DNA of 50,003 nt from a virus (taxonomy: Duplodnaviria; Heunggongvirae; Uroviricota; Caudoviricetes). The DNA lies in the IMG/VR virus record IMGVR_UViG_2609459850_000002; one strand, 5' to 3'. The position numbers were made by a program. Positions 45,001-50,003 of the stretch are shown here, piece after piece. Positions within the stretch are counted from its first letter, which is position 1, and every line of letters begins with the position of its first letter.

Positions 45001-48000
45001 CGAGATTCTACCTGCGTCAGAAAAAGCCAAACTCCTTAACCAGCTACGTGGACTAAACAAGCTCTACGAGGAAGCCTTCGAGAACATGCTGGCACTAAAG
45101 AAACGTAACCAGTAGCCACCGCTCACTACCCCATCCACAACAAAAAAAACCGACGTCTTAGTCGGTTTTTTTGTGCCATAACTTCTGCAAATCAGCTGTA
45201 TAACTAATATTTTTCCCTTGAAAAAACATTTACATAGTTACCAAATCAAAAATATCATACGCCATACTGTTGACTTAAAATATCCGCGTTACTAATATTT
45301 CTATCAAGAACAGCACGGCGCTGTAGGTTTTAGTTCCGCCACCCGGCGTTAAGGGGAAATGAGGTCAGCATGGATACTATCGAGCTTGGCAACAACGAAT
45401 CTCTGGTGTACGGCGTGTTTCCCAACCAGGACGGCACATTCACCGCGATGACGTATACCAAAAGCAAAACGTTTAAAACCGAAAATGGTGCCCGTCGCTG
45501 GCTGGAAAGAAACTCAGGTGAGTGATATGGATTTCGACACAATCATGGAAAAGGCTTACGAAGAATACTTCGATGGTCTTGCCGAAGGCGAAGAAGCTCT
45601 CAGCTTCAGTGAATTTAAACAGGCGCTTTCCAGTTCGGGAAAATCTAACGGCTGATAAGCGAAACAGCACCGCGAGGAATCAGTATGCAGAAACGAGAAC
45701 CCGTCATCATCGCGCCAGACTATACCGATGATGAACTTTATGAGTGGATGCGCCAGAAAATTAATGCAGTGCAGGATCTGAAATGGGCCAATGAAGCCAG
45801 GACTAAGCAGGCTGAAAATCTGTCCGCTCTGGAGCAGGATATCACCAGGCTGGAAAAAGCAGCGGCATTAAGCATTGCCAGAATGGTTACATACCCACGT
45901 TAATAGCTAACCAACGAGGCTAATAATGGAATTTAAAGATTTACCAATGCCATTCCAGGAAATGGCAGCGAATGTGGTTCGCTCTCAACTGGCGACTCTT
46001 GACCTGAGTACTGTAGAAAAGGAAACCATCGATACTATATCCGGTAACGTGCGTCGTGCCTTTATAGGTCTGTATGAAGAGAAGCGCCTATTCGGCGGAC
46101 AGAATTCGCCTGAAAACAAGAATCAAGCAAATGATGAGAAGCTGAAACACATTATCGCCTTACTTTTGGAAGACGCAAAACGTCTACAGCAACTGGAACC
46201 AAATGCAGGCACAGAGGCCCGCATTTGGATTGCCATGAAATCACTCAAATGTGAAAGCAGTGATTATTTCAAAACAACAATTAAAACTACTCAACTTTCG
46301 GGAGAGCTACTGAAGAAATTGCCATAAGAGCATGGTCTTTCTCTTGTTCTGCAAGATGAGCATTAATACCTGGTATGGTTTTTTCAAATTTATCTATCTG
46401 TTGAATAACAACTTCGCGGTATACGTTTGTTTTTGTACCACCAAGCGCAGCCGTTAATGCAGAAAGCATATTTAGTATCATATCAGTGCGATATGAAAGA
46501 ATCCTGATAGCTTCATCTTGTTTTTCAATAATAGATTGCAGGGCCTCAATTTGCTTTTTATCCATTTCACCCTCCTGAGGGTTGGTAATTAAGGAGTTCT
46601 CCACGGGTCAGGTGGAGTGCGTGCGCCGGACACGGGTGAACATCCGGCACTGACAGTTTACTGAAAGGATATGTCCCTGAAAAGTCAGGGCATAACGCGA
46701 AAGCGCACGGCGAAATTGGTCTCTCTGTACGGTGTCGTTAAATTTAGTTCGACCGTGCGCTTCCGGTTGTGGCACTCCGCGAAATGGCGCGGCGGTAAGT
46801 ATGGCGGGGGTATTTCTTCCCCCCTTGAGGACACCGGGGTGTCAGGTTGACCATACGCTTAAGTGACAACTCCGCTGCAACGCCCTCTGTTATCAATTTT
46901 CTGGTGACTTTTGGCGGTATCAGTTCTACTCCGTGACTGCTCTGCCGCCCTTTTTAAAGTGAATTTTGTGATGCGGTGAATGCGGCTCAGCGCACGCGGA
47001 ACAGTTAAAACCAAAAACAGTGTTATGGGTGGATTCTCTGTATCCGGCGTTAATTGTTAACTGGTTAACGTCACCTGGAGGCACCAGGCACCGCATCAAC
47101 AAAGTTCACTTCGGTGATGAAAGGTAGAGAAAATGTTGAATGTAGCTATTGAAAACCAGAACGGGTGGAATTATAGTGCACCTGCACCTCATAAAACGGG
47201 TGCCGGGCGTGGAAACCCGAAATCATTCACGGCGCATAACCGCGCTCAGGCGGTTTTTTTATGCGTTAAGCACAGCCACATTCGCATTATGGTGGGGCGT
47301 GCAGGGCAGCCGCAAGGCTGGCCGGGTTCCGTGATGACCGGTATTTCCACCCCTGTACGTCTCACCACCCTTATGGTCGTGGAAAACCTCGGTGGTGAGT
47401 TAATCAAATTCATCGCGGAGGCTGCCATCATGGCTACTATCCTTACCCTTTCTCACCCTGACGTAACCATCGAAAATGGTCGCGCTGTCACTACGTCTGT
47501 TGCGATCGCCGAGTTCTTTGGCAAACGCCACGAACGAGTGTTGGATAAAATTCGCAATCTGGACTGTTCAGCAAAATTCACTGAGCACAATTTTGTGTCG
47601 AGCGAATACACCGACTCAACCGGGCGCAAACTCCCAATGTACCAAATCACCAAAAACGGCTTCGTTTTCCTGGTGATGGGCTTCACTGGCAAAAAAGCCG
47701 CTGCATTTAAAGAGGCATACATTGCTGAGTTCGACCGCATGGAAGCTGAACTGCGCCAGAATAACGCCCCGTCTCCCGACAAAATGATTCACGGGGACGG
47801 ACGCACCCTGGTTATCCGTCTCGACGAACACGGCAATATCAAATTCACTGAAACCGTTCCTGACGGCGCAATGGTCTGCACCCTGGATACCTTCCTGTTT
47901 TATCTGGAGCAACAAGGCTGGACTCTTGTAAACCGGAGCGCAATTAAAAATATGACTGTGGAGCAATTGCTAAAAATTCATTGTTGAGGACGCGATAATG

Positions 48001-50003
48001 GAAACGTCACTACCAAACGTTAATACGTCTGACGGGTGCTTTAATATTGGTGTTCTGCTCAGTAACAGGGATTTCACCGAGGATGCAATCAATATGAGAA
48101 AATATGAACCCTACCTGCTGAATGACAATTCCATACTCTCCAGAATTGCCCTTCTTAAACTCGGTATTTTCGGAGAGTGGCGATGAACACATTATTCGTA
48201 CTCATTCTGACTGTACATCTCAATACTGGTGAGTCGCTTGATGCAATCACCGGCATGTACAACTCAATGAAAGAATGCATGGCTGCCGCAGCGGAACAGA
48301 AAATTCCCGGCAACTGTTATCCGGTCGATAAAGTTATTCACATGGACAATAACGAAATCCCTGCAGGATTAAAAACAGCGCCGTAATTAATATCCAGTTT
48401 CATTTTTATATGCCAGCAATGGCAGGGATTTGTTCACCCTGAAATCTGTAATGAGGTTAAAACAAAATGAGTAAGGTCTTTATTTGCGCCGCTATTCCTG
48501 ACGAACTGGCAACAAGGGAAGAAGGCGCTGTGGCTGTAGCCACAGCCATTGAAGCTGGCGACGAACGCCGTGCTCGAGCAAAATTTCACTGGCAATTCCT
48601 GGAACATTATCCGGCTGCTCAGGACTGCGCTTATAAATTTATTGTCTGCGAGGATAAACCTGGCATACCCCGCCCTGCCCTCGATTCCTGGGATGCTGAA
48701 TATATGCAGGAAAACCGCTGGGATGAGGAATCCGCTTCCTTTGTCCCGGTTGAGACTGAATCAGATCCGATGAACGTCACTTTTGACAAGCTGGCCCCTG
48801 AAGTACAGAACGCTGTCATGGTTAAGTTCGACACATGTGAAAACATCACCGTTGATATGGTTATTAGCGCACAGGAATTGTTGCAGGAAGACATGGCAAC
48901 ATTCGACGGACATATCGTTGAAGCGTTGATGAAAATGCCAGATGTTAACGCCATGTATCCGGAGCTTAAGCTGCATGCCATCGGGTGGGTTAAGCATAAA
49001 TGTAAGCCTGGTGCCAAATGGCCCGAAATTCAGGCAGAGATGCGCATCTGGAAAAAACGTCGCGAAGGTGAACGCAAGGAAACCGGAAAATACACGTCTG
49101 TTGTTGATCTCGCCCGCGCCAGAGTCAATCAACAGCACACTGAAAATTCAACAGGAAAAATCAGCCCGGTCATTGCTGCCATTCATCGCGAATACAAGCA
49201 GACATGGAAAACACTGGATGACGAACTGGCCTATGCTCTCTGGCCTGGTGATGTGGATGCCGGAAACATTGACGGCAGCATCCATCGCTGGGCAAAAAAT
49301 GAAGTTATCGACAACGACCGCGAAGACTGGAAGCGTATCTCGGCATCAATGCGCAAACAGCCTGATGCCCTTCGCTACGACCGCCAGACTATTTTTGTCC
49401 TTGTCCGTGAACGTCCGATCGACATTCACAAAGACCCTGTGGCACTGAACAAATACATTACTGAATACCTGACTACAAAGGGCGTGTTTGAAGATGAAGG
49501 AAGAAATCAGAGCGCAACTGATACTCTCTCGTCGCCAGGGCTTTGTTGAATAAATCGAACTTTTGCTGAGTTGAAGGATCAGATCACGCATCTTCCCGAC
49601 AACGCAGACCGTTCCGTGGCAAAGCAAAAGTTCAAAATAACCAACTGGCCCACCTACAATAAAGCCCTCATCAACCGTGGCTCCATAACTTTCTGGCTGG
49701 ATGATGAAGCTATTCAGGCCTGGTATGAGTCAGCAACACCTTCTTCACGAGGCAGACCTCAGCGCTATTCTGACCTTGCCATCACGACTGTGCTGGTCAT
49801 TAAACGCGTATTCAGGCTGACCCTGCGCGCTGCGCAGGGCTTTATTGATTCCATTTTTTCTCTGATGAACGTTCCGCTACGCTGCCCGGATTACAGCTGT
49901 GTCAGCAGGCGGGCAAAGTCGGTTAATATCAGTTTCAAAACGCCCACCCGGGGTGAAATCGCACACCTGGTAATTGATTCCACCGGGCTGAAGGTCTTCG
50001 GTG

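Follow-up and report, generated by a model that had tools for sequence, protein, structure and literature searches.

In the immI region of P1 and P7 (c4-icd-ant1/ant2-kilA), the C4 RNA keeps icd and ant from being translated (Citron and Schuster 1990, as cited in PMC2864571 and PMC8201110). In the Gifsy-1 prophage, the isrK-orf45-anrP operon is driven by the isrK promoter, which is required for anrP transcription, and the read-through mRNA is translationally silent; an AUG inside C4 begins orf45, which is required for anrP translation, and short IsrK supplied in trans raises anrP translation at least 100-fold, while AnrP induces the prophage (PMC4825925, Hershko-Shalev et al. 2016). The dicBF operon of the Qin prophage in Escherichia coli K-12 (ydfABC-dicF-dicB-ydfDE) is repressed by DicA and relieved by Rem. 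The 3′ region of its small RNA (sRNA) DicF pairs with the ftsZ leader (PMC5069750), and DicA is a non-cleavable repressor whose relief by the antirepressor Rem was identified in 2023 (10.1101/2023.04.14.536235). Here, we looked into how these systems compare with the interval from 46898 to 48386 of a 50,003-nt stretch of DNA from a Caudoviricetes virus (IMG/VR record IMGVR_UViG_2609459850_000002; the whole stretch is called the window below), which holds dicF, a Rha-domain gene (rha), dicB, and a ydfD homolog.

An earlier note on this DNA had placed DicF, a Rha-domain regulator, and DicB-like and YdfD-like genes in one early-left operon. All four elements lie where it had put them, on the + strand, and score above curated family thresholds. 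That note had overlooked three further elements, an isrK-type RNA, a C4 antisense RNA, and a promoter-like site, all of which lie between dicF and rha. We propose that an antirepressor cassette, gated by IsrK and C4 and equipped with its own promoter, carries the Rha gene as its payload and is nested in a dicBF-type operon directly upstream of dicB, and we put the probability of this reading at roughly two in three (0.68). The locus is a mosaic of known modules, in that each component belongs to a known family with a known mechanism and the arrangement is recurrent.

The rha leader and its RNAs

The rha gene (47430 to 47987, + strand) encodes 185 amino acids (aa), of which residues 10 to 111 match the Rha domain (Pfam PF09669, 107.5 bits, cutoff 29.9; TIGR02681, 107.8 bits, cutoff 45.95). 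Its leader consists, in order, of a promoter, a terminated sRNA, and an antisense RNA, followed by GGAGG 8 nt ahead of the ATG at 47430. The promoter-like site is of the sigma-70 type and equivalent to PisrK (47149 to 47177, + strand; TTGAAA-17-TATAGT); 10 of its 12 positions agree with the consensus, and 7 nt separate its end from the start of the IsrK-type sRNA (47184 to 47260, + strand). The latter matches Rfam RF01394 with 67.7 bits (gathering score, 50) and ends in an intrinsic terminator found by the terminator scan (stem at 47238 to 47255 and a T-run, T7). Within it lie the two decoy sites for C4, b1 (47209 to 47215, an exact match to b′) and a1 (47223 to 47232). The Rfam family c4-a1b1 (“a1, b1 targets of C4”) matched at 47171 to 47223 below its threshold (25.7 bits versus 46.7, E = 7.6 × 10−4).

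The C4-type antisense RNA (47285 to 47372, + strand) matches the full model of Rfam RF01695 with 81.9 bits (gathering score, 45), and its unpaired recognition segments are a′ (47327 to 47337, in a hairpin loop) and b′ (47344 to 47350). By complementarity to these segments, the target sites on the rha mRNA (47379 to 47421, + strand) are b2 (47379 to 47385) and a2 (47410 to 47420), the second of which overlaps the rha Shine-Dalgarno sequence GGAGG (47417 to 47421). The a′-a2 duplex is predicted at −19.3 kcal/mol over 47409 to 47423 and the b′-b2 duplex at −9.1 kcal/mol, and together a2 and b2 form the sole full two-part C4 target within the 50-kb window.

We aligned this leader with 13 homologs from other prophages and phages (Gifsy-1, ST64B, mEp460, phiP27, cdtI, and several Stx phages). 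Pairing was judged by segment-level duplexes and covariation counts; whole-sequence RNAduplex runs of C4 against its flanks gave inflated, uninformative energies. In every aligned leader, b′ is complementary both to b1, in the second IsrK hairpin, and to b2, downstream of C4, and a′ is complementary both to a1 in IsrK and to a2, which borders on the Shine-Dalgarno sequence of the gene downstream or overlaps it. The sequences of these recognition sites vary from phage to phage, yet they do so in concert. The three internal helices of C4 were 100% paired in the 14 homologs, with 7 pairs changed on both sides. For the a′-a2 helix, 94% of cells were paired, with double changes in 8 of 11 pairs, and for a1/b1 with a′/b′, 95.5% of cells were paired, with double changes in 13 of 16 pairs. 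None of 500 shuffles reached the observed score, and slid registers were only 32 to 50% paired. The b′-b2 helix was 60.6% paired in the MAFFT alignment, which put a 3-column gap inside b2; in an alignment-free check, all 14 leaders had the exact complement of b′ downstream.

An independent sample of 87 further IMG/VR viral leaders gave a similar picture. The b′ 7-mer had its exact complement at both sites in 66 of the 87 leaders (11 alleles), and the a′ segment paired at both sites in 73 (23 alleles), while non-cognate b′ alleles produced no match in 9,322 trials. Such covariation among three sites cannot arise otherwise than by selection for RNA-RNA pairing. The promoter is conserved as well: the TTGA of the −35 element and the TAnAnT of the −10 element are invariant in the 14 aligned leaders, including that of Gifsy-1. 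As a separate observation, the IMG/VR contigs L035, L036, L050, and L088 each carry 2 or 3 copies of the C4 5′ motif on one strand, spaced 653 to 659 nt apart, which suggests tandem C4-controlled cassettes.

The leader also holds a reading frame. An AUG inside C4, invariant in the 14 leaders, opens a frame of 47 codons (47289 to 47429, + strand) that runs in phase into rha: the rha ATG follows 141 nt (a multiple of 3) further on, without a stop codon in between. This frame is the counterpart of Gifsy-1 orf45, fused here to the downstream gene, and translation from 47289 into rha is plausible. Among the IMG/VR leaders, the C4-AUG frame was fused to the downstream gene in 67 and formed a separate short upstream open reading frame (ORF) in 30. 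The RefSeq annotation goes further upstream and gives a 284-aa Rha protein from 47133 (47133 to 47987), which spans both RNAs as well as the promoter; transcripts from the cassette promoter are incompatible with a start at 47133. Residues 14 to 109 of the 284-aa form, in its extra N-terminus, match Pfam Phage_ASH, and these residues correspond to nt 47172 to 47460, that is, to the RNA leader itself, a coincidence that recurs in nine homologs. The Pfam family PF10554 (Ash protein family) thus appears largely to translate a conserved regulatory RNA leader.

We then compared the cassette with the two described systems. The likeness to P1/P7 immI lies in a full-length match to the C4 family with an antirepressor-type gene next to it, in two recognition segments complementary, in an allele-specific manner, to two sites upstream and to two more downstream, where ribosomes bind the first gene to be translated, and in division inhibitors that share the transcription unit (Icd and KilA for P1, DicB for the window). 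The two differ in that the product in the window is a Rha-domain protein instead of P1 Ant, that there is no separate icd-like ORF in the window, where the upstream frame continues in phase into rha, and that the a1/b1 region of the window is a discrete, terminated IsrK-type sRNA; furthermore, the window derives from a lambdoid prophage and P1 is a plasmid prophage.

The likeness to Gifsy-1 isrK-orf45-anrP extends to the promoter, IsrK and its terminator, the C4-like RNA (STnc1160), and the AUG inside C4, all of which align with the window, as well as to the same three-way complementary sites and to a downstream product that shares its C-terminal domain with Rha. In contrast, AnrP has an ORF6N N-terminus, orf45 is a separate frame translationally coupled to anrP, whereas the frame is fused in the window, and the recognition alleles differ. 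The Gifsy-1 locus adjoins the late antiterminator gene antQ and has isrJ after it, whereas the window cassette lies in an early-left operon and is followed by dicB-ydfD. As judged from the sequence, the cassette has the design by which P1 immI and Gifsy-1 isrK-anrP gate an antirepressor.

The relation of Rha to AnrP is limited to the C-terminal part. Residues 100 to 172 of Rha matched the C-terminal domain of the AnrP family phrog_2379 (E = 8.6 × 10−9), and a direct BLASTP comparison with AnrP gave E = 0.001 and 24% identity over the C-terminal ~75 aa only. Several related PHROG families carry an anti-repressor label. We rejected Rha as a full ortholog of AnrP, since their N-terminal domains differ. 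The earlier note's term “Rha-domain regulator” is correct as to the domain, but it understated the gene: context and the C-terminal domain point to an RNA-gated antirepressor, as in P1 immI and Gifsy-1 isrK-anrP.

The surrounding dicBF-type operon

Sequence and gene order identify this interval as the distal portion of the early operon that runs leftward in a lambdoid E. coli prophage, the counterpart of the Qin dicBF operon (ydfA-ydfB-ydfC-dicF-dicB-ydfD-recE′). A near-identical prophage of E. coli 042 has YdaT and YdaS genes divergent from a repressor gene, which is followed by ydfA, ydfB, ydfC, two hypothetical genes, Rha, dicB, DUF1482, exonuclease, xis, int, and ompW; this prophage looks intact (exonuclease-xis-int-ompW), and synteny with it bears out a Qin-type dicF-dicB-ydfD cell division and lysis module in the early-left operon.

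Aligned with K-12 dicF, the DicF RNA starts at 46898 and is 53 nt long (46898 to 46950); the feature extends to 46955 (+ strand) when the 3′ stem-loop and the T-run, which make an intrinsic terminator, are included. DicF matched Rfam RF00039 with 71.5 bits (gathering score, 48) at 46899 to 46950, covering model positions 1 to 52 of 52. Compared with K-12 DicF, 2 of 53 positions are changed (G12U and U29C), and the pairing with the K-12 ftsZ ribosome-binding region is retained in an unchanged register (predicted duplex, −36.9 versus −38.5 kcal/mol for K-12). The 300 nt upstream of it, which form the DicF precursor region, are ~94% identical to K-12, with ydfA, ydfB, and ydfC homologs further upstream. 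An ORF of 59 aa (46671 to 46850, + strand; phrog_8854; a hypothetical protein in E. coli 042) lies wholly inside this conserved precursor region and for that reason may not be a real gene.

Downstream of dicF lies a structured spacer (46962 to 47103, + strand), which is near-identical to the K-12 dicF-dicB spacer and corresponds to the dicB 5′ leader in K-12. It holds a sub-threshold STnc100-like match (36.6 bits versus a gathering score of 47) with the hairpin CACCUGGAGGCACCAGGCACC within it, and K-12 Qin has the same sequence.

At the distal end, dicB (47998 to 48186, + strand) encodes 62 aa that match Pfam PF05358 (111.7 bits, cutoff 27) and NCBIfam NF049927 (103.4 bits, cutoff 100); over 55 aa, the product is 64% identical to K-12 DicB, and its final 7 residues diverge. 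The ydfD homolog (48183 to 48386, + strand; 67 aa, DUF1482) matches Pfam PF07358 (69.6 bits, cutoff 25) and is 67% identical to K-12 YdfD across all 63 aa; its start overlaps the dicB stop (ATGA), likewise in K-12, and the E. coli 042 annotation gives it the same extent. Alignment of the DicB-like and YdfD-like products with their namesakes had been set beforehand as the test of the earlier note, and both align. The dicB Shine-Dalgarno sequence GAGG (47986 to 47989) overlaps the rha stop codon (47985 to 47987), and dicB starts 10 nt after rha, with no promoter or terminator match at the rha-dicB junction in the promoter and terminator scan. Beginning so close behind rha, dicB-ydfD should be co-transcribed with it, and with neither promoter nor terminator in between, the transcripts that reach them would begin either upstream of ydfA, at the operon promoter, or at the cassette promoter. 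Transcripts from upstream of ydfA must cross both the DicF and the IsrK terminators to reach dicB, and those from the cassette promoter must cross the IsrK terminator only. Thus, the claim of one operon holds insofar as all the genes belong to the same leftward early operon, but the DicF terminator, the conserved internal promoter, the IsrK terminator, and the C4 RNA all separate dicF from rha, and for this reason we treat rha as a separately controlled cassette.

The comparison with K-12 Qin showed that gene order and strand match, that the precursor and the dicF-dicB spacer are ~94% identical, that the downstream recE-like gene is cut by an insertion sequence (IS) in both, and that both have a short repressor without a cleavage domain. 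Against this background, the window has two segments that K-12 Qin lacks: an 872-bp IsrK/C4/rha cassette between the spacer and dicB, and ~680 bp with two extra ORFs between ydfC and the DicF precursor. The presence of a Rha gene between dicF and dicB, contrary to K-12 Qin, had been noted and is confirmed; the dicF-dicB gap is 1,047 nt in the window versus 174 nt in K-12. Homology to K-12 ends at ~47098 to 47108, with divergence after GCATCA at ~47098, and resumes at AAAATTCATTGTTGAGGACGCGATAATG, which comprises the last 15 nt of the window rha and the dicB leader. The segment missing from K-12 (47109 to 47980, 872 nt) lies between AAA(A/G)TTCA repeats, an 8-bp direct repeat whose left copy is AAAGTTCA (47101 to 47108, + strand) and whose right copy is AAAATTCA (47973 to 47980, + strand). 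K-12 has a single AAAATTCA at the junction, and E. coli RMDEC332 has AAAATTCA as its left copy. On this alignment, K-12 Qin and the cassette form are related by one precise repeat-bounded indel, either an insertion or a deletion.

Downstream of this cassette, RMDEC332 has ydaE, and the Rha C-terminus reads SLK* there versus KIHC* in the window. Based on this difference, we place the right-hand cassette junction within the last rha codons, and since the rha of RMDEC332 ends differently, the last 15 rha nt retained in K-12 may belong to the dicB leader instead. In the same strain, a truncated ydfC leads into a DicF-like terminator hairpin without the ftsZ-pairing core ACUCCGUGACUG (L006 2490-2540); after this hairpin come the same spacer and cassette and then ydaE in place of dicB. 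The other segment absent from K-12 (45926 to 46604, the ~680 bp mentioned above) holds a 133-aa ORF (+ strand, phrog_1363) and a 105-aa ORF (− strand, phrog_18692), with no assigned function. Downstream of the interval, an IS903B (IS5-family) element at ~49520 to 50003 interrupts the recE-like exonuclease ORF (48467 to 49549); the gene encodes 823 aa in relatives and is the one known as ydfE in K-12, where IS2 cuts it.

Upstream, the operon is preceded by the gene for a 153-aa prophage repressor (44654 to 45115, + strand), for which Pfam detected HTH_3 only and no S24 peptidase domain. It scored 35.1 bits against the NCBIfam DicA profile (cutoff, 101), and its C-terminal 42 aa are 38% identical to DicA; it is therefore best described from its domains as a predicted short, non-cleavable helix-turn-helix (HTH) protein with a DicA-like C-terminus. 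A palindrome at 45143 to 45172 makes a bidirectional terminator after the repressor gene, and the promoter scan found promoter-like sites before ydfA (45229 to 45298), which are candidate operon promoters. Divergent from the repressor are a YdaS-like gene (PF15943, 30.8 bits against a cutoff of 30, which is marginal; 32% identity to K-12 over 50 aa) and a YdaT-like gene (PF06254, 39.1 bits, cutoff 21; 32% identity to K-12 over 144 aa).

The likeness to Rac (racR/ydaS-ydaT; kilR) consists of these two divergent genes and of the DUF1391 gene (ydaF/ydfA) that starts the left operon. Unlike in Rac, the repressor has no detectable RacR similarity, and the division inhibitor of the window is DicB/DicF, not KilR. 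A RacR/YdaS/YdaT-type immunity region, as proposed before, is thus supported for the YdaS-like and YdaT-like genes only; the repressor as a RacR homolog was rejected (BLASTP, E = 26). In the suggested synteny comparison with Qin and Rac, the Qin gene order matches, but the cassette is not in K-12 and the repressor is unlike RacR. With respect to K-12 Qin, the window repressor is DicA-like at its C-terminus only, the divergent genes are YdaS/YdaT-like instead of dicC-like, and the counterpart of Rem is an ORF that shares only its first 26 aa.

This Rem-like ORF (35292 to 35513, − strand) is 73% identical to K-12 Rem over those first 26 residues and diverges in the remainder, and it adjoins a DUF968 gene as rem does in Qin. 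Between it and a hok/sok locus lie a gene for a 368-aa protein with HTH_3 and Peptidase_M78 (ImmA/IrrE-like) domains (35623 to 36729, − strand) and then a 216-aa ORF without assignment. The window also contains two full STnc100 sRNA copies, adjoining two tRNA genes, in addition to the hok/sok-type toxin-antisense locus (29953 to 30141, 30417 to 30610, 30877 to 31033, and 37523 to 37848, all on the − strand).

Proposed control and alternative explanations

The steps of the mechanism that we propose are drawn by analogy with P1 immI and Gifsy-1 isrK-orf45-anrP. In a lysogen, C4 RNA would pair with a2 and b2 and thereby block rha translation. As in P1, an untranslated rha mRNA would probably lower transcription into dicB-ydfD, a gene pair that lacks its own promoter and begins 10 nt past rha. 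Short IsrK, which carries the same target sequences, would titrate C4 or refold the leader and so turn rha translation on. Rha would then antagonize the short, non-cleavable repressor with its DicA-like C-terminus; opening of the operon promoter upstream of ydfA would follow, and more DicF, Rha, DicB, and YdfD would be made, in a positive feedback. DicF would block ftsZ translation, DicB together with MinC would block division, and YdfD would promote lysis. The toxic genes would accordingly be silenced at several levels, namely by the repressor at the operon promoter, by the two intrinsic terminators (of DicF and IsrK), and by C4 antisense control.

That Rha is an antirepressor for the short, non-cleavable DicA-like class of repressor is probable in view of its AnrP-family C-terminus, a repressor without S24, the lack of a LexA box, and the relief of DicA by an antirepressor. 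No LexA box was found in the window with a 20-nt consensus and at most 3 mismatches, so that SOS control of the cassette via LexA was unsupported.

Several points weigh against this proposal. The N-terminal domain of Rha is PF09669 and that of AnrP is ORF6N, and the PHROGs family closest to Rha is labeled merely “transcriptional regulator.” The same rha-dicB-ydfD module is also found beside a different 135-aa repressor, the common part being only a C-terminal stretch; since the module thus accompanies different repressors, the specificity of Rha may not be for this one. The Rem-like ORF makes a second candidate antirepressor in the window. In addition, a1 of the window pairs with a′ only via a 1-nt bulge, and dicB carries its own Shine-Dalgarno sequence, so its translation could be independent of rha. 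For this locus, we infer how the promoters are used and the RNAs processed, that Rha acts as an antirepressor, and that polarity extends to dicB. Taking these points together with the evidence above, we hold to an estimate of about two-thirds for the explanation as a whole, in which an autonomous antirepressor cassette with an IsrK/C4 switch would sit inside a dicBF-type operon.

We weighed this explanation against three others. The genes from ydfA to ydfD could form a simple operon, transcribed only from the repressor-controlled early-left promoter, with Rha an ordinary DNA-binding regulator, as the PHROGs label has it, and the RNA matches without a role. The genes are indeed all on the same strand and closely spaced, and the K-12 dicBF operon showed no internal promoter besides dicBp; however, the K-12 result does not cover the cassette, which K-12 lacks. 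Three Rfam families score above their gathering scores, the promoter core is invariant over diverged homologs that include the experimentally validated Gifsy-1 promoter, and the three-way covariation of the recognition sites needs selection for RNA-RNA pairing, all of which leaves the simple operon improbable. We also considered that the 284-aa RefSeq protein is real, an “Ash” domain fused to Rha, with the isrK and C4 matches as by-products of a conserved coding sequence. Throughout the leader, 12 of 13 non-Gifsy homologs have no stop in phase with rha, while the other frames have 2 to 8 stops; the b2 indel is exactly 3 nt; the extension matches Pfam Phage_ASH and phrog_995; and in other phages the ORF extends another 360 nt upstream, overlapping the stop of the preceding gene. 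Yet the Ash match coincides with the RNA leader, and the most variable “codons” are the a and b recognition sites, which change in concert at three places, a pattern that coding fails to explain. Furthermore, the supposed ORF contains a conserved promoter as well as an intrinsic terminator, and the frame is broken in 30 of 97 leaders and in Gifsy-1. We therefore regard the full-length protein as quite improbable, although part of this explanation may be true: translation likely runs from the AUG inside C4 (47289) into rha.

Finally, the interval could be an inert remnant of a decaying cryptic prophage, its arrangement the outcome of random mosaic recombination and decay. The neighboring recE-like gene is cut by IS903B, and K-12 Qin, the model for the operon, is itself defective. 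Nevertheless, the ORFs and RNA elements of the interval are intact and pass full-length models, matched sets of a and b recognition sites are preserved, and among the 269 genomes with this arrangement (see below), many retain it at no less than 93% identity, prophages with xis and int included; decay is accordingly an account to which we give little credence.

Distribution and implications

With at least 80% of the interval covered, the cassette form was found in 269 of 5,426 complete E. coli genomes (~5%), including the enteroaggregative strain 042, and the contiguous K-12 form was found in 3,779 of them. No record in the GenBank phage set covered 80% or more of the interval, and none of 127 sampled C4 sites in IMG/VR viral contigs lay between dicF and dicB. 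At other positions the cassette is widespread, usually in the early-right operon before the replication genes. The literature retrieved on DicF in combination with IsrK comprised reviews and sRNA lists only, and we came across no paper describing this arrangement.

The results bear on annotation, in that the N-terminal part of RefSeq and GenBank “Rha/antirepressor” ORFs at such loci appears largely to translate an RNA leader; the RNAs themselves go unannotated. Work on dicBF control is recent, and the locus is a natural variant in which a riboregulated antirepressor would lie inside the operon, directly upstream of dicB. In Salmonella, IsrK is raised in stationary phase, under low Mg2+, and under oxidative stress. 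It is possible, though we offer it only tentatively, that the genes for DicB, which inhibits division, and YdfD, which promotes lysis, lie under the control of the IsrK/C4 switch and its own promoter, so that conditions that raise IsrK could trigger DicB, YdfD, and Rha independently of the repressor, with Rha feeding back positively and the leader serving as two regulatory RNAs and an in-frame coding extension. The locus offers a concrete, testable link between the IsrK/C4 switch and the inhibition of cell division. If the proposed cassette is real, it would be the lambdoid counterpart of the P1 immI logic, in which an antirepressor and division inhibitors lie behind C4.

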